Shown: piece after piece, positions 3,845-61,636 of the stretch | How positions within the stretch are numbered: the first letter of the stretch is position 1 | Layout of the letters: each line of letters opens with the position of its first letter | NCBI GenBank assembly: GCA_040757775.1 | Contig: JBFLWQ010000001.1 | Location: 58,917 to 122,916, forward strand | From: Thermodesulfobacteriota bacterium | GTDB taxonomy: Bacteria > Desulfobacterota > UBA8473 | DNA: 64,000 nt | Reading direction: 5' to 3' | Program-made: the position numbers and the translations under genes | The notes under the pieces: model-generated | What the model was told of the DNA's origin: nothing | Database searches by the model: none | Seen by the model: the letters and a program-made list of their open reading frames with translations, nothing else

Positions 3845-3878
3845 GCGCTTAAAACAGAAGATGCAGGGCAGTCATCCA

Positions 3879-4748
3879 CTATCCTATCAGCTCCCTATAT
3901 GCCTTAGCTATACTTTTATATATCGGACCGGGGCTGCCGTCCTTTATCTTTTTATTATTTACTTCAACAACCGGCATTACTTCCATTATAGAATTTGTCA
4001 AGAATACCTCATCCGAGGTGAAGAGTTCATATGGTACAATTTTCTTTTCAGCTACCTCGAGGTTTAATTCATGAATAATACCCAGTACTGCCTTCCTTGT
4101 TACACCAGGTAATAAATGGCTTGAAACAGGGGGGGTAAAAATCTTCTCAGACTTTACTGTAAAGACATTGCTTGTAGCACCCTCTGTTACTTCTCCCTCA
4201 GAATTCAATAAGATAGCTTCAAATGCCCCTTTTATTCTGGCTTCTTCCTTTGCCAGGATGTTGTTAAGGTAGCTCAAGGATTTATGCTGGGGCAAAGGAG
4301 AAAATGAATTCTGTCTGATGCCTGATATTATTACATTAACACCTTGAGTATAGTATTCTTGAGGATATGGGGAGATTTCCTTTGCCATGATGACAACAGT
4401 GGGGTCATAGCTGTCATTGAAAGTCAGAGTGTCACGGTGGAGCCCCCTGGACACAGTAAGTCTTATATAGGCATCGGATAAGCGGTTGAGTTCTATCAAT
4501 CTGTCTATATCCGATTTCAGTTCTTCTTTATCCTTCCTGAGAGGAATCCGTAGCTTATCAAGGGAGTCGAATAATCGTGAGAGATGTCCGTCCAGCATAA
4601 AGACCCTGCCCGAATATGCCCTCATAGTCTCAAATAATCCATCTCCGTATAAAAATCCCCTGTCGAACACAGAGATTTTAGCTTCTTCCTTTGACACAAA
4701 ATCCCCGTTCAGATATACGTAATTGTTCATAATAACGATTCTCCGCAA
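3879..4748 (-). CDS. pabC: class IV PLP enzyme, probable aminodeoxychorismate lyase
   Basis: 289 aa; fold-type IV aminotransferase-like N-terminus (VFDRGFLYGDGLFET). Lies immediately downstream of the pabA/pabB-like genes on the same strand. Confidence 0.5.
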   Translation of the reverse strand: MRRIVIMNNYVYLNGDFVSKEEAKISVFDRGFLYGDGLFETMRAYSGRVFMLDGHLSRLFDSLDKLRIPLRKDKEELKSDIDRLIELNRLSDAYIRLTVSRGLHRDTLTFNDSYDPTVVIMAKEISPYPQEYYTQGVNVIISGIRQNSFSPLPQHKSLSYLNNILAKEEARIKGAFEAILLNSEGEVTEGATSNVFTVKSEKIFTPPVSSHLLPGVTRKAVLGIIHELNLEVAEKKIVPYELFTSDEVFLTNSIMEVMPVVEVNNKKIKDGSPGPIYKSIAKAYRELIG

Positions 4749-8634: not shown

Positions 8635-8711
8635 GCCCCCGTAGCTCAGGTGGATAGAGCAAGGGATTCCTAATCCCTGTGCCGCGTGTTCGAGTCACGC
8701 CGGGGGCACCA
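8635..8711 (+). tRNA. tRNA-Arg (anticodon CCT), 77 nt with encoded CCA
   Basis: Cloverleaf read by hand: acceptor GCCCCCG/CGGGGGC, D-arm GCUC/GAGC, anticodon stem AGGGA/UCCCU with loop UUCCUAA (anticodon CCU), T-arm GCGUG-UUCGAGU-CACGC, discriminator A, then CCA. Confidence 0.85.
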
Positions 8712-21088: not shown

Positions 21089-21122
21089 CCAAAGGACTTG
21101 TTGTCCTTTGGCTTTTCTGTTT
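21089..21122 (+). terminator. rho-independent terminator-like hairpin
   Basis: CCAAAGGAC-ttgtt-GTCCTTTGG (perfect 9-bp stem) followed by CTTTTCTGTTT. The track's TTG start for the portal (21108) lies inside this hairpin. Confidence 0.45.
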
Positions 21123-21137
21123 GAAAGGTACTCAGGC

Positions 21138-27153: not shown

Positions 27154-28446
27154 ATGGAATGGCTAATTGAGACTTTGCCCGCTCGCCTCGAGATCGTTGA
27201 AGAGGCGACTGAGGCAAACGGTGGAAGGATGAAGGTTCGTGGCAAGTTCCAGGAAGCCGACGTGATAAATGGCAATGGTAGGGTTTATCCACGAAAGATA
27301 TTGAAAAGGGAAGTGGAAAGGTTGAAGCAGGACGTAGCTGAGCGGAGAGCGTTTGGAGAAGGAGACCACCCAAAAGATGGGAGGTCCACGATTTCTGGAA
27401 CGGTAAGTATCCTGACAGATATTGACATGCCTGACAATGAGGTATTCGGAGAGGCTATAATCCTGAATACCGCAAAGGGCAAAGACCTTCAGGAGATAAT
27501 TCGAGCCGGTGGTCGAGTTGGTGTGTCTAGCAGGGGCAGTGGAACAACAAAGAGAGGTAGATGGAATGGAGAAATGGCCGATGAGGTGGGGGAAGACTTT
27601 AGACTGAAAACGTTTGATTTTGTGATAGGCGCAAGCGTCAAAGGTGCTGAGGTGGGTTCATACACAGAACAGCAGCTTGATGTAATAAACATTCTCTCTG
27701 ATAGCCAGCGTGAGTTGGGAGAGGAGCAAAAAGGGGAAAAGGAGGAGGTTATGAAACTAGGAGAATTGAAGGAAAAGTATCCAGAGCTGGTGAAGCAACT
27801 GGATGAGGAGGTCACTGCTAGAGTGACTGATGAAATCACCAAGAAGGTAACCGAGGAAGTCACGAAAAGACTGTCCGATGACTTTGATAAGAAAGTCACC
27901 GAGGCAATTGATCAGCAAAGACAGGAGATTGTGAAACAGGTACGAGTGGAAATAGAGGGGTCGCCTGAGTTCAAAGCTGGTAATGACGTGCTTCGCAAGA
28001 TAATCGAATCGGTGAAACCACTACTCGGAGAAAACAAAGCAGATGATACCGATGATGAGAATAAGAAGATTATCGAGGGCTTGAAGGCATCCATTGAGGA
28101 GCAGGAAAAGAAGATTGAGAAGTTAGATAACCAGGTTAAGTCGCTGACTGGCCAGCTCTCTGAGGAAAAGTCTAAGGTTGAGGTAAAGGCATACATCGAG
28201 GAGAAGACCAAGGGCGAGGTTTTACGAAATAGCCTGATGGAGCGACTTGGTGACTGCAAGACAAAGGAAGAGGTTGATGAGCGGTTGCCCAAGGAAAAGG
28301 AAGCTATCAAGAAGGTAATCGATGAGTCCAAGCGTCCCCCAGGACATGGTAAAGTGCTGGATGAAGATAAGGAAGAGAAAGGGCTTACGGAAAACCAGAA
28401 AAGGCAACGTAGGGCTGCCGGTATCAAGGAGAAGTCCGACAAGTAG
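27154..28446 (+). CDS. prohead protease-like domain fused to a coiled-coil scaffolding domain
   Basis: N-terminal ~130 aa resemble the HK97-type (S78/U35) prohead protease (VRGKFQEADVINGNGRVYP; GEGDHPKDG; VGVSSRGSG). The C-terminal ~300 aa are E/K-rich heptad coiled coil. Lies upstream of the capsid gene. Confidence 0.45.
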   Translation: MEWLIETLPARLEIVEEATEANGGRMKVRGKFQEADVINGNGRVYPRKILKREVERLKQDVAERRAFGEGDHPKDGRSTISGTVSILTDIDMPDNEVFGEAIILNTAKGKDLQEIIRAGGRVGVSSRGSGTTKRGRWNGEMADEVGEDFRLKTFDFVIGASVKGAEVGSYTEQQLDVINILSDSQRELGEEQKGEKEEVMKLGELKEKYPELVKQLDEEVTARVTDEITKKVTEEVTKRLSDDFDKKVTEAIDQQRQEIVKQVRVEIEGSPEFKAGNDVLRKIIESVKPLLGENKADDTDDENKKIIEGLKASIEEQEKKIEKLDNQVKSLTGQLSEEKSKVEVKAYIEEKTKGEVLRNSLMERLGDCKTKEEVDERLPKEKEAIKKVIDESKRPPGHGKVLDEDKEEKGLTENQKRQRRAAGIKEKSDK

Positions 28447-28488
28447 TAACGTTTGAACGAGAAGAATATAAATAAGGAGGTTCAAATC

Positions 28489-29592
28489 ATGAAAGAGAGG
28501 AAACGATTATCACTGCCAGGTGTTGCACCTGCGTGGTTGAATGAGGATGAGGAAAGAAGGGAAAGATGGGCGTATCTGACAGAAGATATAAAGGATGATC
28601 TGCTAAGACGACAGGTCGAGACGATGTTGGATAACGAAGCATGGTACATGGATTATCTTGAAGAGACATCGCAGACCTCTAACGTAGGTACGTTTACTAC
28701 GTTTGCGTTCCCGCTCGTCAGAAGGATTTATCCAAAGCTGATCGCAACAGAGCTGGTTTCGGTTCAACCCATGACCCAGCCTACAGGCAAAATCTTCTAC
28801 CTGGATTTCAAGTACAATACCGGAGGTCAGAGAATCGACACGAATCCAGATAAGACCTATGCCAATGCAACCGAGGGCGGTGCAGTAAAGGAGATTAACT
28901 TTGATATCACCTCTGTGACTGTTGAGGCAGGAGAAAAGAAGCTCAAGGCAAAATGGACTATCGAGGCTCAGCAAGACTTGATGGCGTACCATGGCCTTGA
29001 TGCTGAAACTGAGTTAATGGGCGTCTGTGGAGATGAAATTACAAGAGAGATTGACAGAGACATCATAGACGATGTTGTTGCTCAGGCTTCTGCTGGTAAC
29101 GTCAACTGGTCAAAGACGATTCCGACAACTGCGCCATGGAACGTATTGGATCCAAAGGTCTACAAGGAAACCTTGTACGATGCGATCATCGATGCGAACA
29201 ACATGATTTTCAAGAAGAGGTATAGGAATGCTTCCTGGATTGTGGCCGACCCCGATACCTGTACCAGATTTGAGAAGCTCGAGAAATTCAAGTTGTTCGA
29301 AGGGGCTGATGACGCCACAATGAATATGGGAGTGATCAGATTCGGTACCCTTGCTAACAAGTATCGAGTCTATAAAGATCCGTGGTTCGCTGCCGACAAG
29401 ATACTGTTAGGTTACAAGGGGCCTACGTGGTTGGAGACAGGGTACGTCTATGCGCCGTACATTCCGTTGTACGTGACGCCTTTGATAATCGACCCTAATG
29501 ATTTCATACCAAGACGAGGGATGATGAGTCGGTTTGCCAAGAAGGTAGTTAGTGGCGACTTCTTCGCAACGGTAACGCTGACCGGGTCATAA
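28489..29592 (+). CDS. major capsid protein (putative)
   Basis: ATG 28489 with RBS aaggagg (the track's TTG at 28453 rejected). About 367 aa, following the scaffold/protease. Confidence 0.5.
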   Translation: MKERKRLSLPGVAPAWLNEDEERRERWAYLTEDIKDDLLRRQVETMLDNEAWYMDYLEETSQTSNVGTFTTFAFPLVRRIYPKLIATELVSVQPMTQPTGKIFYLDFKYNTGGQRIDTNPDKTYANATEGGAVKEINFDITSVTVEAGEKKLKAKWTIEAQQDLMAYHGLDAETELMGVCGDEITREIDRDIIDDVVAQASAGNVNWSKTIPTTAPWNVLDPKVYKETLYDAIIDANNMIFKKRYRNASWIVADPDTCTRFEKLEKFKLFEGADDATMNMGVIRFGTLANKYRVYKDPWFAADKILLGYKGPTWLETGYVYAPYIPLYVTPLIIDPNDFIPRRGMMSRFAKKVVSGDFFATVTLTGS

Positions 29593-36523: not shown

Positions 36524-36798
36524 CACGGTTCTATGGATGGACACACTCTCAGATAATGTCATTAACTCCAGGGCAGTATCGGTTTTACCTGTCTGGTATG
36601 GACAGACTTAATGCTAGTGAACGCCTTGAGGAAATTGTTGTTCATTCAATTCCATATCTTAGTTCTGGAAGTAGAGCTGGTATTGTTCAAAGGTATCGAA
36701 ATGAACTTATGAACGATCTATGCGAACCATACGAACCATGTCTCGATGAAACTGCTTTTTTAAATATAAAAAGACGACTGCCTAGAGGACGTGCATAA
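36458..36798 (+). CDS. tail assembly chaperone -1 frameshift extension (GT product, 36113..36466 joined to 36466..36798)
   Basis: Slippery A_AAA_AAA at 36460-36466 (within the A9 run 36458-36466). The -1 frame is open from the slip site through the 36556 ORF to 36798, where ATGA couples to the tape-measure start. Confidence 0.5.
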
Positions 36799-39700
36799 TG
36801 TTTGACGCTGGTAGTTTAGTTTCTAAGCTCACGCTTGATGCGACTGAATATTTCAAAAAGCTTGGTGAAGCCTTGTCCAAGTTTGAAGGACTTGGTACGT
36901 CTATCGGCAAAGAAATGGATAAAATCCAAAAGGATGGACAGATTGCAGCCGATAAGATGGCTAGCTCCTGGAATAAGGCACTGAAGGACATTGAAAAGAA
37001 TTCCGATATGTTCAAGAGCATCGGAATGAAGATAAGTGCTATCGCTGCGGCTGGTACTGCTGGACTAACAGCGACTGTTATGGCGTCGTCGAAATTCGAG
37101 GCGTCCCTTGCTAATGTGTCTACTCTGGTTAATACGAGTGAAGTCAGCATGGCAAAGCTAAAGCAAGGTATCATGGATTTGCCTCCTGAACTTGGGCGGG
37201 CAACCATGTTGAGTGAAGGCTTGTATCAGGCGTTGTCTGCTGGAGTAAAGCCTGCTGAGGCGATAGGTTTTGTCACTGCTGCGGCTAAGGCGGCAAAGGC
37301 AGGTTTGACTGATGCGTTTACCGCTGTCGATGCTGGAACAACGATCCTGAACGCGTTTGGAATGCAGACTTCCGACGCTGGCATAGCTTTTGATCAGATG
37401 TTCAAGACTGTTGAGCTTGGCAAGGTCACATTTGAAGGTTTGGCAGTAACGGTTGGAAATGTAGCACCTACGTTTGCCACTGCAAAGCTGTCCACCGAAG
37501 AGATGTTCGCCGCCATAGCGACCTTGACTGCTGGCGGTATTGACGCTGCACGTGCTACTACGTCATTGAACAGTGTAGTTTTAAATATAATCAGGCCACA
37601 GGAAAATGCTATTGAAGTTGCACGACAGTACGGGATTGATTTGAGCCTGGCTGGACTACAGGCGAAGGGGTTCAGTGGATTTTTGAAAGAGCTTCAGGAT
37701 AAAGTTGGAGGTAATACTGAGGCACTCGTTAAGATTATACCCAACATCGAAGCCTTACGAGCTATCCTGCCGTTGGTTGGAACACAGGCTAATATGTTTG
37801 GAGAAGCCCTGGACGCTATCGGAGCGAAATCAAAAGGTGCTATTGACAAAGCTTTCTTAAAACAGATGGACACAACTAAGGAGTCATTTGCTGCTCTTGG
37901 AGTTAGTGTTGAAAAGTTTGCGATTGCTATTGGAGACAAGCTTGCACCTGTCATAAGGGTTGTAACAGAGCGTGTAACGGATATGGTTAAATGGTTCAAT
38001 GACTTGAACGATGGATGGAAAACTGCCATCGGTCTCTCGGTAGCTCTTGGTACTGGACTGGCTGCTATTACTGGTCCTGCACTTCTGCTGATAGGATACC
38101 TTCCACGAATAGCGGAAGGTATTGCGATGATAGGTACTTTTATTGCTGCGCACCCGATCGGGCTGGCGATCACTGGGATTGCTGCAGCGATAGGTGCGCT
38201 TACTATTGCGTTTTTGTCATATAAAGCAGCCCTAGCCGATGTGACCCCATTTCAGGAATATTCACATAATCTTGCCGTTGTAGATAAAGAGCTAGAAAGA
38301 TTGAGGGGACGAGTTGAGACCCTAGAAAAACAACCATGGATTTTCGGACCAACGAAGGGCATGATTCAGGAGACACTGGATCGGATTAAAGAACTGGAAG
38401 AGAAAAGGCAACAGATCATACGTGACTTTGCCAAGATAGGAGACAAAGAAGAGGAGGATAGGAAGAAGGCAAAAGAGGAAAAAGAGAAGCTGGAAAAGGA
38501 GAAAAAGAGAATAGAGGAGCAAGAGGAAAGGAATAGACGAAAGCAATTAAAGTCGCAAGCAGATGATGAGGCAAGAAAGGAACGAGTGAAGCTCAACCGT
38601 GAACTAGAGTTGTCTCTTATGAACGAGAAGGAAAAAGCCATTGCCATAATGAATGAAAAGGTTGAGGCGTTCAGGAAGGCTGGTCTGGATGAGACTAAGA
38701 TTCAGGGATATATTGATCAGGAAAAGCTTGAAATTGAGCAAAAGTATACAGGGTTGACACAAAAAGAGTACGATAAGCTCGTGGAACACTGGAGGCAGGC
38801 TAATAAGTACAAGGCAGAACTGGCTGGGAAGGCCCTTGAAGAAGAACTCAGAGAGACTGATAATGCTATTAACCAGCAGGAAGCCATGTATCGTGATTTG
38901 TTCTACAAGTCAGGTCAATATGCTAAGGAATATACATACTTTAGAGAGCTTCAAATCGATATTGAAACCGATGACTTGATAGAGTCCCTGACAAAGAATG
39001 TTCGAAGCATAGAAGAAGCTAATGAAATCATCTTGCTTATAGAACAGCAAGCGGTAGAAAAGAAGAGACAACTCCATCTAGAAACCAATAAGGCAATGCT
39101 TCAGTATTCAAATGATTTTGTTATGGGGTGGAGTATAGGACTGGATGAAATGCTAGCAAAGCAATACACCTGGGGACAGGCGGGCTATGATGTGTTCAAA
39201 GCCTTTACGGATGGTGCAAAGACTATGTTCTCCAGTATGTTTATGGACTTTTTCACGAGCGATCTCAAGACGTTTGGGGATTACTGGGAGTCGTTTTGGA
39301 ACTCTATGCAAAGAAAGTTCTCGGAAATTTTGTCACAGATGCTGGTGGAATGGATGATGACGCAAGGAAGGATGCAATATGCCACAGGCGGCGGATATAC
39401 ACAGACTGGAGCAGGAGGACAGGTCGTACAGACCAGCTATGGGATGTTGTCAGGGGCAGCATTGGCTGGGATTCCTGCAGGTTCCGAGGTTGCGTTCGTG
39501 CCTCTATCCGAATTGTCTCAGGCAGAAATCACGGCGGCCGTGCAGCAGGGGGCGAACATTACCACCACATCAGAGGGTGTCCAGGGGCTTGCGGTGACAA
39601 AAGTTGCGGAGGCTGGGTTCTGGCAATACGCCGGGACGGCGGGTATTAGCTATATGGGGTCTAATCTTGTTGCTTCTCTTTTGGGAACGGAAAAGGGAAG

Positions 39701-40193
39701 TGCTGAAGACCTGGCAACAAGAGCTTTGTCAGGAGCAGCAACAGGGGCTGCTTGGGGCACATGGGTAATGCCTGGTGTAGGTACAGGCATAGGTGCAATC
39801 ATAGGAGGGATTACAGGACTGCTCGGTGGTTTGTTCCATGAGGGTGGCATCATCAAGGCTCATGGAGGGCTGAAGATAGGAAGTGCTATCTCCGATATGA
39901 TGTCATCTGTTTTTAAGCCAAGAGAAAAGCTAGTCCTTACTGAAGTTGGCGAAGGGATCCTACCTGTTCCAGTCATGGATAGACTTGGTGACATAGGTTT
40001 TGAGAGCCTACGGAGTGGGAACTTTGAGATTAAATCCGAACGTAGCTCTGTATCAGGAACTGGAAACCATTTCTATATTGATAAGTTGGTAGCGATTGAA
40101 GGTGACTACCACGTGTTTGATGATAGGTTTATTGAAAATCTGACCAGAAAGGTAAGAACTGAATTACAAAATCTTGCAGAACTGAGGCACTAA
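36798..40193 (+). CDS. tail tape-measure protein
   Basis: 1131 aa; N-terminal TP901-type region, long EK-rich coiled coil, Gly-rich hydrophobic C-terminal segments. Confidence 0.8.
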   Translation: MFDAGSLVSKLTLDATEYFKKLGEALSKFEGLGTSIGKEMDKIQKDGQIAADKMASSWNKALKDIEKNSDMFKSIGMKISAIAAAGTAGLTATVMASSKFEASLANVSTLVNTSEVSMAKLKQGIMDLPPELGRATMLSEGLYQALSAGVKPAEAIGFVTAAAKAAKAGLTDAFTAVDAGTTILNAFGMQTSDAGIAFDQMFKTVELGKVTFEGLAVTVGNVAPTFATAKLSTEEMFAAIATLTAGGIDAARATTSLNSVVLNIIRPQENAIEVARQYGIDLSLAGLQAKGFSGFLKELQDKVGGNTEALVKIIPNIEALRAILPLVGTQANMFGEALDAIGAKSKGAIDKAFLKQMDTTKESFAALGVSVEKFAIAIGDKLAPVIRVVTERVTDMVKWFNDLNDGWKTAIGLSVALGTGLAAITGPALLLIGYLPRIAEGIAMIGTFIAAHPIGLAITGIAAAIGALTIAFLSYKAALADVTPFQEYSHNLAVVDKELERLRGRVETLEKQPWIFGPTKGMIQETLDRIKELEEKRQQIIRDFAKIGDKEEEDRKKAKEEKEKLEKEKKRIEEQEERNRRKQLKSQADDEARKERVKLNRELELSLMNEKEKAIAIMNEKVEAFRKAGLDETKIQGYIDQEKLEIEQKYTGLTQKEYDKLVEHWRQANKYKAELAGKALEEELRETDNAINQQEAMYRDLFYKSGQYAKEYTYFRELQIDIETDDLIESLTKNVRSIEEANEIILLIEQQAVEKKRQLHLETNKAMLQYSNDFVMGWSIGLDEMLAKQYTWGQAGYDVFKAFTDGAKTMFSSMFMDFFTSDLKTFGDYWESFWNSMQRKFSEILSQMLVEWMMTQGRMQYATGGGYTQTGAGGQVVQTSYGMLSGAALAGIPAGSEVAFVPLSELSQAEITAAVQQGANITTTSEGVQGLAVTKVAEAGFWQYAGTAGISYMGSNLVASLLGTEKGSAEDLATRALSGAATGAAWGTWVMPGVGTGIGAIIGGITGLLGGLFHEGGIIKAHGGLKIGSAISDMMSSVFKPREKLVLTEVGEGILPVPVMDRLGDIGFESLRSGNFEIKSERSSVSGTGNHFYIDKLVAIEGDYHVFDDRFIENLTRKVRTELQNLAELRH

Positions 40194-52596: not shown

Positions 52597-53016
52597 ATGC
52601 CAAGGATGAAGAAAGTTGTAGAAGAAATCCTTACGAACCATGGGCTGATAGATAAGTTTAGAAAGGATGAGTTTTTCCATGCAAGAATTGAAAGTCCTGG
52701 GTTTATGAGACTTGTGATTGAAAGATTGGGTGGAGGACGGGTATCTGTTGCTCACTACTACGAGCAGAACGGTGACCTCATGGCGGACCCTGACATCGTG
52801 TTTGATATGATGGATCATGATTGGGTACCAGTGGAGTACACACAGCATAATCTTGGGATTTATCAAAGAGTTGTACATGATAAAGGTGGTCAGGAGTTTG
52901 TAGACATAAAATTGCAGAAAAGTATTGCAAGTTTTGCGAATGGTCTATGGGCAAAGAACTTGAAACATCAAGGCTTCGCTGATCCTAAGCAATCAGTAGT
53001 AGCGGAGAGGTTGTGA
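52597..53016 (+). CDS. hypothetical protein
   Basis: RBS aaggagggg + ATG; 139 aa. Confidence 0.3.
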   Translation: MPRMKKVVEEILTNHGLIDKFRKDEFFHARIESPGFMRLVIERLGGGRVSVAHYYEQNGDLMADPDIVFDMMDHDWVPVEYTQHNLGIYQRVVHDKGGQEFVDIKLQKSIASFANGLWAKNLKHQGFADPKQSVVAERL

Positions 53017-53020
53017 GATT

Positions 53021-55138
53021 ATGGGAATAGAAAAGATAAGAGAGGAAATGAGGAAAGACTTTGTTGAACGGTCTGAGCTTGTTGATGGATGCCTTGTTGC
53101 TGTGTTGGCAAAACAGCACTTATTGATGATAGGTCCTCCAGGAACGGCTAAGAGTTTGCTCTGCAATGATCTCTGTCTCAGGGTGGATGGTGCCGTGTAT
53201 TTCCAGTGGCTACTCACGAAGTTCAGTACACCGGAAGAGATATTTGGGCCGATTTCGCTAAGCCACCTGGAGAAGGATGAGTACAAAAGGATAACTGCAG
53301 GGAAGTTACCGGAAGCTCATATTGGGTTCTTGGACGAAGCTCTTGACTTGGATACTCCACTAGCAACGCAGGAAGGATGGAGCACGGTAGGACAGGTTAA
53401 AATAGGAGATACGATCTTCGGAGCAAATGGAAGTCTAGTCAATGTAATAGGCATGACGGAGATAGCAGCAAATAGAGACTGTTATAAAGTGACTTTACAG
53501 AATGGAGAGTCTATTGTAGCTGATGCTGGGCATAACTGGCTATGTCGAAGAGGTAGAGGTCATCATAGGGTTCCTTTCAAGGTTAGAACGACTTTGGAAA
53601 TGGCAAATGAACTTAAGAAGAACGGATTCTTGCAGCTTCCACTTCCTAAGCCTGTCCAGCTACCGGAGCAAGACTTACCAATAGACCCGTATGTTTTAGG
53701 GCTATGGTTGGGTAATGGTAATTCGTGGAACGGTGAAATTTTAATGCGGAGAGAGTGGGCCGATGCTGCTCTAGCAGAGATACGGAAGTCACTGCCAAAG
53801 GCAAGAATAGTTGAAAGGGCAAATTGTTCCAAACAGTTGAGAACTATTTCCGTGGGAGATACTGGCTTACGATCCAAATTGGGAGATGCAGGATTGCTGC
53901 TTTCCAGAAGTGTTTACAGGGGGAGTGGCAAGAGCGTCCCGTTGGTATATTTACGTAGCTCGCTTGGTCAGCGCTTGCGATTAGTACAGGGGTTAATGGA
54001 TACGGATGGATATATGCAAAAGGGAGGAACATGTACGTTTAGCAATACGAATGAGAACATCGTTGACGGCATAGTTGAACTGCTTAATAGCTTAGGAATC
54101 AGGTGTTCAAAAAGGCTAACCAACGATAAAAGGGTAGGAGCTAAAGGGCGGCATAAGAGATGTTGGAAGGTAAATTTTAGGGCAACGCCGGGTATGCCTC
54201 CGTTTCTGGCTAGGAAAGTTTATATTCCCCCTTTGAAACAGCGACGCCATATCAGAGTTGTGTCTGTCAAAAAGGTAAAGTCACGTCCGGTAAGATGTAT
54301 TGCGGTTGACTCAAAGGATCATCTGTTTTTGGCTGGCAGAGTGATGGTGGTTACGCATAACTGTTTCAAGGCAAACTCGGCCATCCTGAATAGCTTACTG
54401 AGCATCGTAAACGAGCGTGTTTACCACAACGACTCGAAGCCAATGCCTGTTCCACTGTTCTCGTTGTTTGGTGCTAGCAACGAGTTACCCCATGGAGAGG
54501 AGCTTGGAGCACTGTACGATAGGTTTCTGCTTCGGTATGAGGTTGGATACATAGGAGAGGATTCAGGCTTCAAGGAGATGCTGCTGTTGGAAGAAAGACC
54601 TACGAAGGAGATGATGAGCCTTCAGGAGTTGGAAAAACTACAGGCCGAGGTTGTGAAAGTTGAAATCCATGATGATTTGATTGAAATGGTTATCAAGCTA
54701 CGTGGTGAATTGAAGAAGGAAGGTATCATCGTATCCGATCGTAGGTGGAAGCATAGCCTGACATGTCTTCAGGCGTTTGCACTGTTGAATGGGCGTAGCA
54801 AGGTTGTTGAAGAGGACCTTGAAATTCTACATCACATTCTGTGGTCGTACCCTGAACAGAAAAAGGTTGTAACCAGGATTGTTAACTCGATTGCAAATCC
54901 GTTGAACCAGAGAGCAATGGAAATATTGGACCAGGCTACCGAAATCTACAACGATGCAGTGGTTAATGGCACAACAGAGCTTGGGATCGAGGCAAATGCA
55001 AAACTGAAGAAACTAAGAGCTGAGATCGATAGTCTGATTAAGAACGCAACTGGTGGTATGACAAAGGCTGAAGAAGTACGAGAGAAGGTGAAGGAGTTCA
55101 ACAAGGTCATAGTCCAGAAGTGCCTCGGTCTCGAATAG
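53021..55138 (+). CDS. MoxR-type AAA+ ATPase interrupted by an intein
   Basis: Walker A MIGPPGTAKSLL; Walker B HIGFLDE, then a 341-aa insertion, then CFKANSAILNSLLSIVNER (MoxR sensor region). The extein is about 364 aa. Confidence 0.6.
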   Translation: MGIEKIREEMRKDFVERSELVDGCLVAVLAKQHLLMIGPPGTAKSLLCNDLCLRVDGAVYFQWLLTKFSTPEEIFGPISLSHLEKDEYKRITAGKLPEAHIGFLDEALDLDTPLATQEGWSTVGQVKIGDTIFGANGSLVNVIGMTEIAANRDCYKVTLQNGESIVADAGHNWLCRRGRGHHRVPFKVRTTLEMANELKKNGFLQLPLPKPVQLPEQDLPIDPYVLGLWLGNGNSWNGEILMRREWADAALAEIRKSLPKARIVERANCSKQLRTISVGDTGLRSKLGDAGLLLSRSVYRGSGKSVPLVYLRSSLGQRLRLVQGLMDTDGYMQKGGTCTFSNTNENIVDGIVELLNSLGIRCSKRLTNDKRVGAKGRHKRCWKVNFRATPGMPPFLARKVYIPPLKQRRHIRVVSVKKVKSRPVRCIAVDSKDHLFLAGRVMVVTHNCFKANSAILNSLLSIVNERVYHNDSKPMPVPLFSLFGASNELPHGEELGALYDRFLLRYEVGYIGEDSGFKEMLLLEERPTKEMMSLQELEKLQAEVVKVEIHDDLIEMVIKLRGELKKEGIIVSDRRWKHSLTCLQAFALLNGRSKVVEEDLEILHHILWSYPEQKKVVTRIVNSIANPLNQRAMEILDQATEIYNDAVVNGTTELGIEANAKLKKLRAEIDSLIKNATGGMTKAEEVREKVKEFNKVIVQKCLGLE
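53339..54361 (+). mobile_element. intein (341 aa) with LAGLIDADG homing-endonuclease motifs, Ala at position 1
   Basis: Starts FLDE|ALDLDTPLAT (block-A-like with Ala1); LAGLIDADG-like YVLGLWLGNGN and RLVQGLMDTDGYM; ends VMVVTHN|C (HN + Cys+1), inserted at Walker B. Confidence 0.55.
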
Positions 55139-55169
55139 AAAAAAAGAGGCTGTAGGTTTGTTGGAGAAG

Positions 55170-56672
55170 ATGATGGATAAAAATAATGGAGAGTTTGTAA
55201 TCAGAAATGATGCTTACGATAGGCTGTCCTTTGGTTCGATTAAGGAAGAGTCGAAAGAGTTGAAACGGCTTGAAGAGGATGGTAGTGCGTTCTTTTCGAC
55301 GTTCAGCCCACTCATGCAGGATTTCTACTCTGCGCTGTACAAGATAACACCACGGATGTCTGAGGAACTGTTTCCCGCATACGAGCTGAATAGGGTGCTG
55401 CTTGAGGAAGCCATGGGAACGCAAGAGTTTAGGAACCTAAAAGAATTTACGAAGCTTGATGATTTTAATTCTGCTATGGGGGTGCTAAGCGTTGGAGGCA
55501 AGGTGTTGTCGCAACTTCCCGAAGATGTCACTGATGAAACAAATATGATGATGAAAGCTCAGAGGTTTCTTGAAGGTATGATGACAGAAGTTGATAGCTT
55601 GGATGACCTATCAAGTCAGGCTAAAGGCAAGAAAAAGCAGAAGTACCATGGAATGATTGAAAACTTGAATAAGCAGATTAATGAGGTAGAAGCCTTAGTA
55701 AGAAATCATGGAGAGAAAATTGAAAAGTTACTCGATGGCAAAAAGGACGATATTAGACGAATAATGAGAAAGGTGTGTCAGGAAGCTATGAATGACGTGC
55801 AGGAGACATCTGAGTTCCTGGACACATGGGGGTCTGAGCCGGGTAAGCCTTGCCTGTTACCTGTTGACCAGAAGCTCGAATTGGGCAGGGAGATTATGAG
55901 ATCGAATAAGCTGAAACAGATTGCGAAGATAGCTGGACGATTTCAGAGGATTGCTTTGCATAAGCAGGCTACGAAGACGAAGCATGGAGTTGATGAGATA
56001 GTTGAGCTTGAAATTGGGAATGATCTTGGAAGAATTGTTCCTTCTGAACTGGTAAGGCTTGCCCACCCTATTCTTAAGATGGACTTCATGAGGAAGTACC
56101 ACGAACGACAGCTCTTGCAGTACCGAATGGAAGGAGTTGAAAAGAAAGGAAGAGGTCCGATAGTCTTCTGTTGTGATAGCAGTGGTTCTATGGAAGGAGC
56201 GAATGAGATATGGAGCAAGGCTGTTATGCTAGGGCTTTTGACTATTGCTCGCAAGGAAAAACGTAATATGGCTGTTATCCATTTTGGAAACAAGGATCAG
56301 ATTAAGACGTTCGAGTTTGTTAATGGACAGACTGACCCACATATTGTTGTTGAAGCTGCATCGTGGTTTTTCGGTGGTGGTACTGATTTTGAAGCTCCGC
56401 TTCATAAATCGATGGACTTGATCAGTCAATCTGAATGGAACAAGGCTGATATCGTATTCTGTACTGATGGTGAATGTGGTGTTAGCGAAGAGTTTCTTGC
56501 CGAGTATCTGGAGATTAAGAAAAGCAAGGAGTTTAAGTGCTTCTCGATTTTGCTCAATGTCGGTATTAACCCGAATAGCGATTACACACTGAAGTTGTTC
56601 TCTGATGATGTTGCGACACTGACGGATTTGTCAAGGGATGGTGAAGCAATTGATCTGGCGTTCACAATATAA
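55170..56672 (+). CDS. von Willebrand factor A (VWA) domain protein, MoxR partner
   Basis: MIDAS motif IVFCCDSSGSMEG in the C-terminal third; directly downstream of the MoxR ATPase. Start ATG 55170/55173 (the track's TTG at 55158 rejected). Confidence 0.6.
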   Translation: MMDKNNGEFVIRNDAYDRLSFGSIKEESKELKRLEEDGSAFFSTFSPLMQDFYSALYKITPRMSEELFPAYELNRVLLEEAMGTQEFRNLKEFTKLDDFNSAMGVLSVGGKVLSQLPEDVTDETNMMMKAQRFLEGMMTEVDSLDDLSSQAKGKKKQKYHGMIENLNKQINEVEALVRNHGEKIEKLLDGKKDDIRRIMRKVCQEAMNDVQETSEFLDTWGSEPGKPCLLPVDQKLELGREIMRSNKLKQIAKIAGRFQRIALHKQATKTKHGVDEIVELEIGNDLGRIVPSELVRLAHPILKMDFMRKYHERQLLQYRMEGVEKKGRGPIVFCCDSSGSMEGANEIWSKAVMLGLLTIARKEKRNMAVIHFGNKDQIKTFEFVNGQTDPHIVVEAASWFFGGGTDFEAPLHKSMDLISQSEWNKADIVFCTDGECGVSEEFLAEYLEIKKSKEFKCFSILLNVGINPNSDYTLKLFSDDVATLTDLSRDGEAIDLAFTI

Positions 56673-56698: not shown

Positions 56699-57625
56699 AT
56701 GGAGAAAAGATTTGAGCTAGAAAAGGTAAAAGGGCAGTATCAAAATTTCCCAAAGATTGGTGACATAGTCTGGTGGTCGTTAAGTAACATAAAGGTTAGG
56801 AGAGATGATATTGAGAATATGTTCAGGCAGGTTGGCCTCGGGGAAAACTACTTGCCGGCGGTAATAACGAATGATTCCGCTTACAGGAAGGCAATCAAGT
56901 ACAATCGAAAAGTATCTGATCCGCAGCTTCTCAGGTTGATCTTGGACGATAGTGACATAATCGTCCACGGCATTGTCAACGAAAAGGCCGATATGGAAAA
57001 CATGAACCTCGACTATGCGCTTGAGGCAAGGGTGTCTCTGGACAAAGGAACTGGAGTATTCCACAGTACGACTGAGACAGATAAAACCAAGAAGATCCAT
57101 GAAGACTATGACTTTTACATGCTGTATTACACAACGGATGATGTCAGGAGTATAGTCGTCCGGGTGATAAGGAGCCTGAACCCAACAGTAATCCGGGAAG
57201 GCGGTGGTGTCTACTTTGTGCCTGTTACGTATGAGGATACCGTCAAGAAACTTGAGCAGTTGATCCCAATGATGTCGTGGTCTTCTGTCGTGTATTCGCT
57301 CCCTATTATTGACACGGAGAAGACAAGGAAGAACATCTTTGCGGTTTATACGACCCAAGTTGAGAAGGAGATAGAAAGAGTTGTAGCTGAACTTGAAGGG
57401 TTCGATAACCCCACTGTTGATGTATTGAAAAACAGGGTTGAGAAATTTAATGCTATTCGTTTAAAGGCGGAAATGTACGAGGATCTGATAAAGATGTCAG
57501 CAGATGGGATTAGGTCCAGAATAGATTCGGCTGTTGATGCTGTGACGAAAATAATGTTGGGAACAAAAGGCGATGCGGAGCAATGTAGTCTCAGTATTGG
57601 CAACGTTGCAGGAGGAGCACTATGA
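56699..57625 (+). CDS. hypothetical protein co-transcribed with MoxR–VWA
   Basis: RBS gaggaggt + ATG; 308 aa; no motif recognised. Confidence 0.35.
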   Translation: MEKRFELEKVKGQYQNFPKIGDIVWWSLSNIKVRRDDIENMFRQVGLGENYLPAVITNDSAYRKAIKYNRKVSDPQLLRLILDDSDIIVHGIVNEKADMENMNLDYALEARVSLDKGTGVFHSTTETDKTKKIHEDYDFYMLYYTTDDVRSIVVRVIRSLNPTVIREGGGVYFVPVTYEDTVKKLEQLIPMMSWSSVVYSLPIIDTEKTRKNIFAVYTTQVEKEIERVVAELEGFDNPTVDVLKNRVEKFNAIRLKAEMYEDLIKMSADGIRSRIDSAVDAVTKIMLGTKGDAEQCSLSIGNVAGGAL

Positions 57626-57966: not shown

Positions 57967-59043
57967 ATGAAAATTAAAATTGGAAGAAAGGAATTAAAAG
58001 GCAAATTGCCTATGCTTAAAAAGGTAGCTGGTAGTAAAGCATCGCTGTCTATCCTTACGCATAGTCTTCTTGAGGTTAAAGATGATGGCATATTCATTAT
58101 TGCGACAAACCTTGAAACAGGTATGTGCATAAAGTTAAGAAATGTTGAGGTGCATGAAAAAGGACAGGTAGTTTTAGATCATGCTATGTTATTGAAAATC
58201 GCTACAAACGTTAATAGTGAATATCTTGAAGTCGAAACAGGTGATGACTGTGCTCATGTTCATGCCGGGACATATAAGGCTAAGATGCCTATAAACTTTA
58301 CACCTGAGGACTTTCCGAAAATGCCTGATATGCCAGAAGATTGCATGAAACCTATACTGAAAAGTGAGTTTCTAGAGGCAGTCGGGAAGGTCATGCATGC
58401 ACTTCCTTCAGATGCATACTACGCTAATGTTAGGTTTAATGGTGTTTATGTTGGTAAGGATGTGGTTGCTATGGATGGTCATAGAATGGCAGTGGTTAGA
58501 AAGGATTTTGGTTTGGGAAATATTCTTGTTCCCAAAGACTTTATGGATAATCTCCAGTGGTTAGAAGACGAGGAAGGCGATGAGATAAAAGTTACAGTTA
58601 ATAAAGGTACGATAGTTTTTGAGTGTGGTGACATTATATTGTTTGGAAGATTGATAGAGGGGGAATACCCTGATTATGAAAGCATTGTCTCAGATGAAAC
58701 TACGAAAACCGTAGTTTTTGAGAGAAGAGAACTGGCAAGAACTATAAAAATGTTAAAGGCTGTAGGATCGTTCAGCAGGATCGTGATTGAGTTTGGAGAT
58801 GGTGATATGGGTAGCGTTAATATAAGGTCATTTGATAATTCTGGCGTAGGAACAAATGAAATCCCTGTCACATATATTGGCAATGAATCGTTGGCGATAG
58901 CGTTCAACGGCAAGTATCTTCTGGATATGCTTAATGTTGGAAATGGAAAGGAAGAGTTTGTTGTAAAGATGAGCGATAATAGGTCTGTTGTCATCGTTGA
59001 GGAAGAAGATGCAGTATTTTGCATAATGCCTATGTCTCTGTAA
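57967..59043 (+). CDS. dnaN: DNA polymerase III beta subunit (sliding clamp)
   Basis: 358 aa; N-terminus MKIKIGRKELKGKLPMLKKVAGSKASLSILTHSLLEV... parallels DnaN; three-domain length. Confidence 0.6.
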   Translation: MKIKIGRKELKGKLPMLKKVAGSKASLSILTHSLLEVKDDGIFIIATNLETGMCIKLRNVEVHEKGQVVLDHAMLLKIATNVNSEYLEVETGDDCAHVHAGTYKAKMPINFTPEDFPKMPDMPEDCMKPILKSEFLEAVGKVMHALPSDAYYANVRFNGVYVGKDVVAMDGHRMAVVRKDFGLGNILVPKDFMDNLQWLEDEEGDEIKVTVNKGTIVFECGDIILFGRLIEGEYPDYESIVSDETTKTVVFERRELARTIKMLKAVGSFSRIVIEFGDGDMGSVNIRSFDNSGVGTNEIPVTYIGNESLAIAFNGKYLLDMLNVGNGKEEFVVKMSDNRSVVIVEEEDAVFCIMPMSL

Positions 59044-60061: not shown

Positions 60062-61636
60062 ATGATAAATGATACTTTTTATCCTACTCCAAGACCATTA
60101 ATAGAAAAGATGGTAGGCAAAATAACACGAAAAAGCGGATTAATGATCCTCGAACCTAGTGCCGGAAAAGGGGATATTGTTGAATATTTACAAAACAACT
60201 GGGATTATAGGGGTATTCAAATTGACGCTATAGAGATAGATGAGACCCTACGAGCTACATTGTGGGGGAAATATATTAATGTAGTTGATAGTGATTTTCT
60301 TAACTTTGTTGGGCTAGATAAATACGATGTAATAATAGCAAATCCTCCCTTTGATGAAGGGGATAAACATTTACTCAAAGCTATTGAGATAATGTATTGT
60401 GGGGAGATAATTTTTCTCTTGAATGCAGAAACCATTAAAAACCCATATACAAATACTAGAAAAGAACTTGTAAAGCAGTTAAATAAATTAGGGGCAGAGA
60501 TTGAATATATCCAAAATGGTTTTATGGACGCAGAGAAAAAAACCGGTGTTGAGGTAGCTTTGGTTTATATCAAGATAGTAAAGAGTGTTGAAGAAGATTT
60601 ATTTGAGGGAGCAAATGATAAAGCCAAGGATACGCAAGAAACGATAGAGACCCCTTATGAAATAGCAACGCTGAACAATATACAAAACATGGTGGATGAT
60701 TTCAACAGAGTTGTTTCCGTGGGAAGTGAAACCCTGATTAACTACTACAAAAACTACAAACACATATCGAAGTTCATAAAGTTAGCCAGCAAAGATGGAA
60801 AATGCCAGGAATACTATAATGATGAAACCTTAACTCAGATCATGCAAGACAAGCTAAATGTTTTTTTAAGAGAGGTAAGAAAGTCGTATTGGGAAGAGGT
60901 GTTAAATCTCGACGTAATTAAAAATAGACTGACCAGAGCAAAAAGAGATATTTTTTATCATCAGTTAAAGGCTCGGTCTTATATGGATTTTACAGAAAAC
61001 AATATTAGGACTTTTGTCCTCAATATAATTAATGGATTTGGGAAGACCCTCACAGAGGCAGTTGTCGAGCTATTTGACATGATGACAATAAAGCATTCAT
61101 GGGATAAGAATAAACTTTACGAAGAAAACATCCATTATTTTAATGGATGGCAAACCAATAAAGCCTTTTATGTAAATCAGAAAGTCATTTTGCCCTATTT
61201 CTATTTTTGGGACAATATATTCAATAAGTGGAGAATGGGCTATGATACAGAGCGAAAGTTAAGTGATATTGATGTGGTTATGAATTATTTTGATGGTATG
61301 AATAATCGTTATTTGTCAATAGCTCAAGCATTAAGAGGGGCTTTTGATAGGGGACAAACCAAGAAAGTGCTATCTACCTATTTTGAGATTACGGTCTATA
61401 AAAAGGGGACAATACATCTGGTTTTTAGGAATGAAGGAATGAGGCGTAGATTTAATATTACTGCTTGTAAAGGCAAACATTGGCTCCCTGCAGATTATGG
61501 GGTTAAGCCTTTTGAACAACTGCCGGCTCCTGAGCAAGAAATAGTAATGTCGTTTGAAGGGAAAGAAACTTATGATAAAAATGTTGGTGATTGTTTTTAT
61601 ATTCCTACGATAGAATCTAATCTGTTAACAATATAA
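60062..61636 (+). CDS. N6-adenine DNA methyltransferase
   Basis: Motif I LEPSAGKGDIV, motif IV IIANPPF; 524 aa (extra C-terminal region likely target recognition). Confidence 0.7.
   Translation: MINDTFYPTPRPLIEKMVGKITRKSGLMILEPSAGKGDIVEYLQNNWDYRGIQIDAIEIDETLRATLWGKYINVVDSDFLNFVGLDKYDVIIANPPFDEGDKHLLKAIEIMYCGEIIFLLNAETIKNPYTNTRKELVKQLNKLGAEIEYIQNGFMDAEKKTGVEVALVYIKIVKSVEEDLFEGANDKAKDTQETIETPYEIATLNNIQNMVDDFNRVVSVGSETLINYYKNYKHISKFIKLASKDGKCQEYYNDETLTQIMQDKLNVFLREVRKSYWEEVLNLDVIKNRLTRAKRDIFYHQLKARSYMDFTENNIRTFVLNIINGFGKTLTEAVVELFDMMTIKHSWDKNKLYEENIHYFNGWQTNKAFYVNQKVILPYFYFWDNIFNKWRMGYDTERKLSDIDVVMNYFDGMNNRYLSIAQALRGAFDRGQTKKVLSTYFEITVYKKGTIHLVFRNEGMRRRFNITACKGKHWLPADYGVKPFEQLPAPEQEIVMSFEGKETYDKNVGDCFYIPTIESNLLTI

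Follow-up and report, generated by a model that had tools for sequence, protein, structure and literature searches.

Class 3 inteins are defined by a WCT triplet (PMC2807308, PMC7891396), and their splicing route has been worked out on three inteins, MP-Be DnaB, Msm DnaB-1, and Bvi IcmO. A total of 1,701 class 3 inteins have been counted, 82.5% of them with LAGLIDADG domains (PMC7891396), and a phage origin has been proposed for the class (PMC5050341). KlbA inteins lack the WCT triplet, have Asp at block F position 4, and splice with Ala1 and Cys+1 (PMC2807308). Here, we describe an insert that is very probably a class 3 intein with a PI-SceI-type double-LAGLIDADG domain, located just after the Walker B Asp-Glu of a phage MoxR/RavA-like ATPase. 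The gene lies in a 64,000-nucleotide stretch of a Thermodesulfobacteriota assembly (GCA_040757775.1, contig JBFLWQ010000001.1, positions 58,917 to 122,916), which we call the window.

The prototype class 3 intein is MP-Be DnaB of mycobacteriophage Bethlehem (Tori et al. 2010, PMC2807308). Both it and the MoxR intein are 341 aa long with a LAGLIDADG endonuclease, and both lack a position-1 nucleophile, are phage-borne, and reside in a P-loop ATPase (PMC2807308). Compared by the residue numbers given in that paper, they also share the numbering of His65, Trp67, Cys320, Thr339, His340, and Asn341 (PMC2807308). MP-Be DnaB differs in having Pro1, Thr+1, and a DnaB-like helicase host, whereas the MoxR intein follows the Walker B motif of an AAA+ protein. 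The closest solved structures are the Msm and M. chimaera DnaB-1 mini-inteins (PDB 6bs8, 6own, 6rix, 6riy; E about 1e-22, TM 0.81-0.87). These begin ALALDTPL... and have ADAxHxW (block B), VRC (block F), THN (block G), and Cys48 in common with the MoxR intein, but they are bacterial, lack an endonuclease domain, and occupy a P-loop (GK|S) site in DnaB with Lys at -1 and Ser+1. In M. smegmatis DnaBi1, Cys48 is needed for splicing, and under oxidative stress it forms a reversible disulfide with the catalytic block F Cys that stalls splicing (PMC6195587). The Bvi IcmO intein of Burkholderia vietnamiensis is likened to the MoxR intein by its class and its Cys+1, but is a mini-intein of only 142 aa that interrupts an IcmO gene on a plasmid (PMC5222942). 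Because of its Cys+1, both of its branched intermediates are thioesters, yet the block F Cys is required first (PMC5222942). Finally, class 3 inteins also occupy mycobacteriophage terminase large subunits (Kelley et al. 2016, PMC5050341). One of these, the Nebkiss/Gaia TerL intein, is full length, likewise 341 aa long, and 36% identical to the MoxR intein, with a WCT triplet and a LAGLIDADG domain. It too follows a Glu at -1 (IILNE|ALALDTP), but it has a terminase host, Ser+1, and a first LAGLIDADG motif that keeps its Asp (WLGDG).

Outside class 3, the best full-length structural match is PI-SceI, the yeast VMA1 intein (Foldseek 5.5e-17), which has the same two-domain architecture and two LAGLIDADG motifs that both align with those of the MoxR intein. 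We take Asp218 and Asp326 of PI-SceI to be its catalytic acidic residues, one closing each LAGLIDADG motif. PI-SceI differs in being a class 1 (Cys1), eukaryotic intein of 454 aa that has both of these Asp residues, where the MoxR intein has Asn126 in place of the first. Class 1 also includes the cyanobacterial DnaX (Pol III gamma/tau) intein, which lies in another host. Likened to the MoxR intein by its insertion point alone, it provides a precedent for a site directly after an AAA+ Walker B motif (Novikova et al. 2016, PMC4760082).

Results

The features of the locus, with the methods that support them, are as follows.

53021-55138, + strand: precursor ORF, 705 aa (79 kDa), intein-interrupted MoxR/RavA-like AAA+ ATPase (ORF list, Pfam, Foldseek)
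53021-53338, + strand: N-extein, aa 1-106, from Walker A GPPGTAKS to Walker B GFLDE with Asp105 and Glu106 (alignment)
53339-54361, + strand: very probable class 3 intein, 341 aa (38 kDa), Ala1-Asn341 (translation, phmmer, alignment, AlphaFold2, Foldseek)
53339-53638, + strand: N-terminal splicing (HINT) part, about intein 1-100 (approximate boundary), containing block A, ALDLDTP (phmmer, model beta-strand pattern)
53531-53533 and 53537-53539, + strand: His65 and Trp67 of block B, ADAGH65NW
53639-54238, + strand: LAGLIDADG homing-endonuclease domain, about intein 101-300 (approximate; Pfam, sequence and fold match to PI-SceI)
53684-53722, + strand: first LAGLIDADG motif (block C), DPYVLGLWLGNGN, intein 116-128 (HMMER alignment to PI-SceI)
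53714-53716, + strand: Asn126, at the position of PI-SceI Asp218 (HMMER alignment)
53990-54013, + strand: second LAGLIDADG motif (block E), GLMDTDGY, intein 218-225
54005-54007, + strand: Asp223, aligned with PI-SceI Asp326
54239-54361, + strand: C-terminal splicing part, about intein 301-341 (phmmer of residues 305-341 against class 3 DnaB inteins)
54296-54298, + strand: Cys320, predicted nucleophile, in block F, RPVRCIAVD (...HLFLAG)
54353-54361, + strand: Thr339-His340-Asn341 of block G, VVTHN
54362-55138, + strand: C-extein, aa 448-705, with Cys+1 (54362-54364), then FKANSAILNSLLSIVNER, the remaining AAA+ core, the lid domain, and a helical tail (alignment)
55158-56672, + strand: gene for a vWA-domain protein (504 aa), partner of MoxR, outside the intein (Pfam, PHROG)

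The interrupted gene appears in the ORF list as a single 705-aa reading frame, open for 705 codons without a break. The host protein matches the Pfam profiles bpMoxR (PF20030, 4e-50), AAA_lid_8 (PF17868, 4e-20), and AAA_5 (PF07728, 3e-18), and in structure the extein most resembles RavA (3nbx/4upb; Foldseek, about 1e-15). An AAA+ core with Walker A and Walker B motifs, a lid domain, MoxR profiles, and an adjoining vWA gene place it in the MoxR family. Assignment as a RavA equivalog was rejected, at 194.6 bits against the NF010054 cut-off of 681. The vWA protein matches VWA_2 (1.5e-8) and VWA_CoxE (3e-6) in Pfam and PHROG 24053 (2e-72), and adjacent MoxR and vWA genes recur in a related locus (L001). 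With a MoxR product and an adjoining vWA gene, the interrupted gene thus belongs to a MoxR-vWA pair. The database record of the identical protein, which comes from a MAG contig of 266,592 bp, is labelled just "AAA family ATPase". Megablast of the gene against deposited phages found no close relative at the nucleotide level, so the phage is one without a close sequenced relative. We rejected MoxR-vWA as a known anti-phage defence, as PADLOC matched neither the spliced MoxR nor its vWA partner, nor the neighbours DUF6744 and DUF6908.

Translation of 53339-54361 (+) yields 341 aa, ALDLDTP...VVTHN. At the left junction, GAA (Glu106) ends at 53338 and GCT (Ala1, 53339-53341) begins at 53339; at the right junction, AAC (Asn341) ends at 54361 and TGT (Cys+1) begins at 54362. 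When the protein is aligned with nine intein-free and 14 intein-containing homologues, the gap falls exactly between FLDE and [C/I]FKANS, and Asp105 and Glu106 are invariant. The 14 intein-containing homologues, all metagenomic, carry the same insert at an identical site, while 101 intein-free homologues read FLDE-[I/V/C]-FKANS continuously, without a gap. The intein-free homologues include ones in Moorella phage MTATph1 and viral locus L083. Without the intein, the site in the present gene would read CCGGAAGCTCATATTGGGTTCTTGGACGAA|TGTTTCAAGGCAAACTCGGCCATCCTGAAT. The segment is therefore an in-frame insertion that is missing from close homologues and whose removal restores the host Walker B motif. 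A sequence-only reading of this DNA had proposed that 53339-54361 encodes an intein that begins with Ala and immediately follows the acidic Walker B pair of a MoxR ATPase. Codon positions and the homologue alignment agree that these boundaries are right to the base, the alignment bears out the insertion site, and translation together with homology confirms the Ala-first intein.

Block annotation, which that reading had suggested as a check, finds blocks A, B, F, and G all present. Position 1 carries no Cys, Ser, or Thr nucleophile; it is Ala here and in all 15 MoxR inteins. The WCT triplet is complete, comprising Trp67 (B:12), Cys320 (F:4), and Thr339 (G:5), and is likewise kept in 15/15. The same 15 inteins retain AL..., GHxW, (R/K)C, and T(H/S)N|C, one of them having TSN. 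The intein C-terminal model TIGR01443 scores 17.4 bits against a cut-off of 15.6. In a phmmer search of the PDB, intein residues 1-72 and 305-341 align as separate segments with the class 3 Msm/Mch DnaB-1 inteins (E = 5e-23 to 3e-22), and PI-SceI matches the stretch between them. The HINT fold is evident from Foldseek TM scores (target-normalised) of 0.81-0.87 to class 3 DnaB-1 intein structures. The AlphaFold2 model of the precursor has a mean pLDDT of 92, with values below 50 only at residues 106-108 and 449-451, which are the two splice junctions. Taken together, the profile, PDB, and model results for extein and insert go far beyond chance.

At the +1 position, class 3 inteins typically have Ser or Thr, a feature that is not strictly defining, whereas the MoxR intein is followed by Cys. 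Cys+1 is present in 15/15 intein-containing homologues versus 2/92 readable intein-free ones (I 72, V 17, E 1), and it also occurs in all RuvB-like members. That Cys+1 is fixed with the intein and rare without it is expected if this residue is needed for splicing. Given the precedent of Bvi IcmO, we treat the MoxR intein as a class 3 variant that is atypical of its class in this residue. The present lineage, along with others from a larger search, shows that the combination of class 3 and Cys+1 is more widespread than one mini-intein.

The middle of the insert matches the Pfam families Hom_end (1e-6) and LAGLIDADG_3 (3e-5), and it matches PI-SceI in sequence (2.5e-5) and in fold (Foldseek 5.5e-17, TM 0.64). 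The two LAGLIDADG-like blocks noticed in the initial reading are real (GLWLGNGN, intein 121-128, and GLMDTDGY, 218-225); two LAGLIDADG helices in one chain with a PI-SceI-like fold make this a PI-SceI-type domain. Only the second motif ends in an acidic residue, Asp223, and the first has Asn126. WLGNG is found in 15/15 MoxR inteins and in two RuvB-like inteins, compared with W[LI][GA]DG in 52 of 54 other parsed relatives; the remaining two have no recognisable motif. We considered whether Asn126 is unique to the MoxR/RuvB-like lineage and rejected this, as the larger search finds WLGNG in a few other inteins of the Walker B type, whose +1 residue is Ser or Thr. The same search finds WLGDG in some Cys+1 inteins. 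Given these exceptions, WLGNG and Cys+1 are lineage-enriched traits that are not strictly linked. We also considered a conserved Glu eight residues past the first motif (GNGNxxxGE) as a stand-in for the lost Asp; by analogy with I-CreI, this residue would lie in a DNA-contacting strand and not in the active site.

In a neighbour-joining (NJ) tree of inteins (34 taxa, 100 replicates), the MoxR inteins group together in 93/100 bootstraps, the MoxR and RuvB-like Walker B inteins join in 96/100, and the Nebkiss terminase intein, with Glu at -1, joins the MoxR and RuvB-like clade in 93/100. The larger search found further DE|AL...HN|CH inteins in other ATPases. Inteins are more similar than their exteins in 104/105 pairs (47.8% versus 33.6% identity), and intein-containing MoxR alleles are interspersed among intein-free ones in an extein tree. 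That tree is a quick NJ tree of sequences picked by similarity to the query, so the patchy distribution could also mean repeated loss rather than gain. GC content is 0.43-0.49 and does not differ between intein and flanks, and there is thus no sign of recent arrival. A lineage HMM matched only this gene in the window, revealing no second class 3 intein.

How common are such elements? Of 114 confirmed MoxR loci in IMG/VR, 80 were kept, and only one of these carries the intein; we detected no MoxR intein in 50,697 deposited phage genomes. By tblastn, however, full-length relatives of the intein are present in 457 deposited phage genomes. Among the matches listed, most interrupt genes for the terminase large subunit and one lies in a DnaB-like helicase; the single relative read, the Nebkiss TerL intein, begins Ala-Leu and carries the WCT triplet. 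The initial claim that Ala-1 inteins are uncommon in phage genes is contradicted by these relatives, by the 1,701 class 3 inteins already counted (PMC7891396), and by the phage origin proposed for the class (PMC5050341).

Discussion

By homology with class 3 inteins whose route has been established, we propose the following pathway for the MoxR intein. The gene would be translated into a 79-kDa precursor in which the intein separates Walker B from the next strand and helix of the ATPase core. Because the core is split at Walker B, the precursor ATPase should be inactive. Cys320, helped by His65, Trp67, and Thr339, would attack the Glu106-Ala107 bond to give a thioester-branched intermediate, after which trans-thioesterification would move the N-extein to Cys+1 (residue 448). 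Cyclisation of Asn341 would then free the 38-kDa intein, and an S-to-N acyl shift would yield a 364-aa (41-kDa) MoxR reading ...GFLDE-CFKANS..., with Walker B restored. This mature MoxR could then work with the adjoining vWA protein.

Could the 341-aa segment instead be a native accessory domain of this MoxR subfamily? Its presence at the same site in 14 other MoxR proteins would suit such a domain. However, an alignment with MoxR homologues, named in advance as the test that might overturn the intein, went against this reading: 101 close relatives lack the segment and have seamless flanks, and the segment is not a native domain because these intein-free relatives join FLDE directly to xFKANS. 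Moreover, the same element occurs in unrelated proteins, including terminases, dCTP deaminases, PD-(D/E)XK nucleases, and RuvB-like ATPases. We give a native domain virtually no credence. A closer contender is a class 2 (KlbA-type) intein in which Cys320 has no nucleophilic role. Ala1 and Cys+1 are the residues that KlbA inteins use (PMC2807308), direct attack by Cys+1 is compatible with the sequence alone, and Cys+1 has been reported as exceptional among class 3 inteins (PMC5222942). Nevertheless, block F position 4 is Cys where KlbA inteins have Asp, the whole WCT triplet is kept in all 15 homologues, and the homology found is to class 3 DnaB inteins, with no KlbA structure among the PDB matches of the insert at E<=1 in phmmer. 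These features make a class 2 mechanism highly improbable. The element had originally been likened to "class-2/3" inteins such as the KlbA type; the class 3 part of that description holds, and the KlbA part falls to the WCT triplet, the homology to class 3 DnaB inteins, and the lack of a KlbA match.

The insert might also be a decayed, non-splicing remnant, which would leave MoxR a pseudogene or a permanently interrupted protein. Homing-endonuclease genes often degenerate, and activity is found in only about 10% of surveyed LAGLIDADG genes (PMC13405050); here, one endonuclease catalytic residue is Asn. Decay is difficult to reconcile with 705 codons in an open frame, with an AlphaFold2 model that is confident throughout, or with splicing residues that are all intact and conserved over 15 diverged homologues (42-59% intein identity). 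Conservation in the splicing and endonuclease regions is at least as high as in the AAA+ core (45-52% versus 39-42%), and a phage is unlikely to retain an intact MoxR-vWA pair with a dead ATPase. We therefore consider a dead remnant very unlikely and favour a splicing-competent class 3 intein.

This class 3 intein belongs to a clade whose target is the codons just past the Walker B "DE|" of phage P-loop ATPases of several types, namely terminase, RuvB-like, clamp-loader-like, and MoxR proteins; it presumably spread via endonuclease-mediated homing. With Asn126 in place of Asp, the endonuclease may fail to cut both strands or may have lost cleavage altogether, which sits awkwardly with the apparent mobility of the lineage. 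Membership of the LAGLIDADG fold stands; judged from its residues, double-strand cleavage by the present-day domain is in doubt. Why keep such a domain? It is conserved like the splicing domain, yet its Asn is fixed; on the speculative and unlikely reading set out next, it could have been kept for something other than cleavage, serving as a nickase, a DNA-binding module, or a structural element.

Three cysteines, Cys48, Cys320, and Cys+1, are kept in the lineage at or near the active site; Cys48 lies in the N-terminal part of the HINT domain. In DnaBi1, the block F Cys that pairs with Cys48 also binds zinc. One speculative reading, which we regard as unlikely, is that the intein is more than a passive parasite and acts as a conditional cysteine-based switch on a phage MoxR-vWA chaperone; the redox or metal state of the cell during infection would then set when the ATPase becomes active.

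Class 3 inteins are well known and common in phages, and MoxR is an undescribed host: we found no description of a MoxR intein in the literature searched. The mildly new elements are the MoxR host, Cys+1, and Asn126 in place of the first catalytic Asp. The lineage provides natural full-length class 3 inteins with Cys+1, a combination known in the literature from a single mini-intein, and such inteins would be useful for engineering inteins at Cys junctions. With its fixed Asn126, the lineage could also serve to test whether such endonucleases are nickases, inactive, or domesticated. In related viral MoxR genes, Walker A is interrupted by a class 1 intein and Walker B is followed by a group I intron. 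Together with the class 3 inteins, these insertions show that mobile elements of several kinds share a hot spot at the catalytic codons of this gene. For annotation, the mature protein should be read as 364 aa rather than 705, with a middle of about 1 kb that is a mobile element. Our findings add MoxR-vWA genes to the phage ATPases colonised by class 3 inteins.

An intein at Walker B of a phage MoxR ATPase

The sequence-only reading proposed an Ala-1 LAGLIDADG intein at Walker B of a MoxR ATPase. We found this to be right, from the bases at both junctions, an alignment gap and the presence of both LAGLIDADG motifs. Leu-Asp-Glu106 (TTG GAC GAA) finishes at 53338 and Ala (GCT) starts at 53339; Asn (AAC) finishes at 54361 and Cys (TGT) starts at 54362. 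The proposed coordinates and flanking peptides are therefore exact. In-frame translation of 53339-54361 gives 341 aa, ALDLDTPLATQEGW...LAGRVMVVTHN.

Precursor and neighboring gene
53021-55138, +, precursor ORF, one open frame, 705 aa
55158-56672, vWA-domain protein gene, next after the precursor ORF

Combined, the two flanks form a MoxR/RavA-type AAA+ ATPase (Pfam bpMoxR, PF20030, 4e-50, matched in two pieces; AAA_lid_8, 4e-20; AAA_5, 3e-18). The host protein matches NCBIfam RavA at 3e-57, yet scores far under the equivalog cut-off, and structurally the extein matches RavA best (Foldseek on the model). Because the vWA gene adjoins the MoxR gene, the two make a MoxR-vWA pair; such pairs have been noted in jumbo phages, with a proposed role in virion assembly (PMC7824862). 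The genes around the intein-bearing MoxR are phage genes.

Phage genes in the window
21108-24752, +, T4-type portal
27154-28446, prohead protease
28453-29592, gp23-like major capsid protein
36798-40193, tape-measure protein
57967-59043, sliding clamp

An identical precursor protein is on record from a contig of 266,592 bp that bears a Thermodesulfobacteriota MAG label, and the phage region is either a jumbo phage or a prophage. A DUF6908 gene (52597-53016) directly precedes MoxR and a DUF6744 gene (56699-57625) lies directly downstream of the vWA gene; PADLOC gave no match for either. In three related loci (L001, L003 and L004), a DUF6744 gene lies 0.04-5 kb upstream of the phage MoxR. Elsewhere, the window holds one tRNA-Arg (anticodon CCT; 8635-8711, +) and a 524-aa protein (60062-61636, +) with a methyltransferase-like N-terminal region and DUF4942 (PHROG 32703, 1e-45; PHROG matches annotated as DNA methyltransferase). 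At the edge of the phage-like region, a gene at 1171-2655 (-; Pfam PFK 7e-49, Response_reg 9e-16) encodes a phosphofructokinase whose N-terminus is a response-regulator receiver domain; it may be an auxiliary metabolic gene or belong to flanking host DNA.

Could the 341-aa segment be a native MoxR domain? A search of 5.8 billion proteins returned 14 further clusters with the insert (705-767 aa) and many MoxR proteins of ~390 aa without it. All nine aligned intein-free proteins run from ...FLDE directly into [I/C][F/W]KA[N/S]S, leaving a gap that coincides with the proposed boundaries to the residue. The Walker B junction is likewise uninterrupted in 101 intein-free matches, in the MoxR of Moorella phage MTATph1 and in the viral locus L083. 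Since these relatives join the flanks without a gap, a native domain is ruled out. In an AlphaFold2 model of the precursor (mean pLDDT 92), pLDDT falls below 50 solely at residues 106-108 and 449-451, the two splice junctions.

A class 3 intein with an atypical Cys+1

Class 3 inteins lack a nucleophile at position 1 and carry Trp at block B:12, Cys at block F:4 and Thr at block G:5 (PMC2807308, PMC7891396). The window intein has Ala1, His65, Trp67, Cys320, Thr339, His340 and Asn341, the same catalytic residue numbers as the 341-aa MP-Be DnaB prototype (PMC2807308). All 15 MoxR inteins keep the class 3 residues, one with TSN instead of THN. Among solved structures, the insert matches the M. smegmatis and M. 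chimaera DnaB-1 inteins, both class 3 (E = 5e-23 to 3e-22), in two pieces, residues 1-72 and 305-341; the middle has no DnaB-1 match and instead matches the endonuclease part of PI-SceI. Foldseek on the model returned PI-SceI (5.5e-17, TM 0.64), the TliVMA intein and class 3 DnaB inteins (TM 0.81-0.87). The triplet is absent from KlbA-type class 2 inteins, in which block F position 4 is Asp (PMC2807308), and the PDB matches of the insert (E ≤ 1) include no KlbA structure. The insert is thus, by sequence, a class 3 intein; of the earlier "class-2/3" assignment, the WCT triplet and DnaB-1 homology sustain the class 3 part, while class 2 and the comparison with KlbA fall away.

By homology, splicing would begin with attack of Cys320 on the Glu106-Ala107 bond, forming a thioester branch. 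The N-extein would then be transferred to Cys+1, Asn341 would cyclize, and an S-to-N shift would yield a 364-aa, 41-kDa MoxR containing ...GFLDECFKANSAILN... and a free 38-kDa intein.

Cys+1 is atypical for class 3. In the 2010-2016 literature, Bvi IcmO is the sole such case, and there the block F Cys is still obligatory, with Cys+1 no substitute for it (PMC5222942); class 3 chemistry is therefore preferred over class 2 here. The +1 residue is Cys in 15/15 intein-containing alleles, whereas intein-free alleles have mostly Ile (72) or Val (17) at the equivalent position and Cys in only 2, a pattern that supports a functional requirement. One of those two, P0017, adjoins a DUF6744 gene, as phage alleles do; it represents either a permissive site that is empty or a precise intein loss.

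Cys48 is also conserved in 15/15 MoxR inteins and aligns with Cys48 of M. smegmatis DnaBi1, a residue that is required for splicing and, under H2O2, pairs reversibly with the catalytic block F Cys in a disulfide; that block F Cys also binds zinc (PMC6195587). Given this behavior, it is possible, if speculative, that splicing of phage MoxR is conditional.

A conserved endonuclease domain with an unusual Asn

Both LAGLIDADG motifs align with those of PI-SceI. The first, GLWLGN126GN, places Asn126 at the position of Asp218, and the second keeps Asp223, aligned to Asp326; Asp218 and Asp326 are the catalytic residues of PI-SceI. The first-motif Asn is fixed in the 15 MoxR and 2 RuvB-like inteins, and Asp occupies this position in 52 of 54 other parsed relatives (the remaining two lack a recognizable motif). 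Exceptions exist: Asn also occurs in a few Walker-B-type inteins outside these two sets, and Asp in some inteins with Cys+1. Among MoxR alleles, the endonuclease region averages 48% pairwise identity, on a par with the splicing regions (45-52%) and above the AAA+ core (39-42%), so the region is, judged by conservation, not decaying. With Asn126, the endonuclease may be a nickase, inactive or Asn-tolerant. The majority of surveyed natural LAGLIDADG genes are inactive (PMC13405050).

Patchy distribution among MoxR alleles

This intein occupies only one of the 80 IMG/VR MoxR loci kept (114 confirmed) and has no counterpart in MoxR of deposited phages; among 1.84 billion representatives, it accounts for just 9 clusters at the 50% identity level. 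Intein identity exceeds extein identity in 104 of 105 pairs of MoxR alleles (47.8% vs 33.6%; r = 0.55). Carriers are no closer kin to one another by extein (33.6%) than to intein-free alleles (35.8%), and a quick extein tree puts intein-containing exteins in ten separate groups. This patchiness fits either horizontal spread or repeated loss, which the trees are too crude to tell apart.

Other mobile elements occur in the window and in related MoxR genes. The portal gene (1,214 aa; Pfam Portal_T4 8e-51, Intein_splicing 2e-25, HNH_3) appears to contain two further inteins, both apparently class 1 (Cys1) and equipped with endonuclease domains of the HNH type, not LAGLIDADG, which would bring the window to three in 64 kb.

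Apparent portal inteins
~21333-22286, +, intein A, ~aa 76-393, PEIS|CVTGDT...HLIISN|SSIDIY
~23100-24275, +, intein B, ~aa 665-1056, DVNAK|CLAGDT...GIFVHN|STLTVQ

A viral MoxR gene at L025:3001-5127 (IMGVR_UViG_3300033141_003168) has another intein at another catalytic site: its Walker A is split by a LAGLIDADG intein of class 1 (Cys1; GPPGTGK|CYGKNTP...FTVSHN|SLQTEL), and its Walker B is uninterrupted (RIDEIWKGNSS). Another, at L060:3306-4093 (IMGVR_UViG_3300029288_000205), has a group I intron (Rfam RF00028, 52 bits, E 3.8e-12) that immediately follows its Walker B motif, AFIDE, and its second exon continues in another frame with ...YKGSSAIANTLL. At our best-guess splice sites (3315-4101), this intron would lie 2 nt away from where the intein inserts. 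Inside the intron, on the opposite strand, is a 174-aa ORF judged HNH-like by eye only. L060 comes from the same source metagenome as the intein-containing locus L001/L007.

A clade of Walker-B-targeting inteins

The sequence-only reading called an Ala-1 intein in a phage gene uncommon. That expectation was not borne out: tblastn with the intein matched 457 deposited phage genomes, 409 at ≥80% coverage, and 1,701 class 3 inteins have been tallied in the literature, LAGLIDADG domains being present in 82.5% of them (PMC7891396). A phage origin has been proposed for the class (PMC5050341). Among the 40 records listed, matches fall mostly in terminase large-subunit genes and once in a DnaB-like helicase. 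At 341 aa, the Nebkiss terminase intein equals ours in length; it starts ALALDTP after ...IILNE and ends THN|S. Metagenomic relatives, nearly all with WCT and a non-nucleophilic residue 1, lie in dCTP deaminases (EGK|AL...THN|SS), PD-(D/E)XK nucleases (DWK|GL...THN|T), terminases and others.

In a neighbor-joining tree, the MoxR inteins group together (bootstrap 93/100), then with inteins that occupy the homologous Walker B position in RuvB-like ATPases (96/100; junctions LFIDE|AL...TSN|CHKL), then with the Nebkiss intein (93/100). An exhaustive HMMER search found further "hhhhDE|AL...HN|CH" inteins in other ATPases. Class 3 inteins that target Walker B thus make up a clade here, with MoxR one host among several. 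Cyanobacterial DnaX, with an intein directly after its AAA+ Walker B, offers a precedent for the site (PMC4760082).

In the RuvB-like ATPases P0049, P0057 and P0231, the sister intein is inserted at the Walker B position used in MoxR, and an intein-free RuvB-like AAA+ ATPase (L003:3908-4801) lies ~4 kb from an intein-containing MoxR on the same phage contig. Having both ATPase genes in one phage would offer a chance of intein transfer between them. Altogether, this kind of class 3 intein is well known; MoxR is a new host gene for it, and Cys+1 and Asn126 are its two atypical residues.
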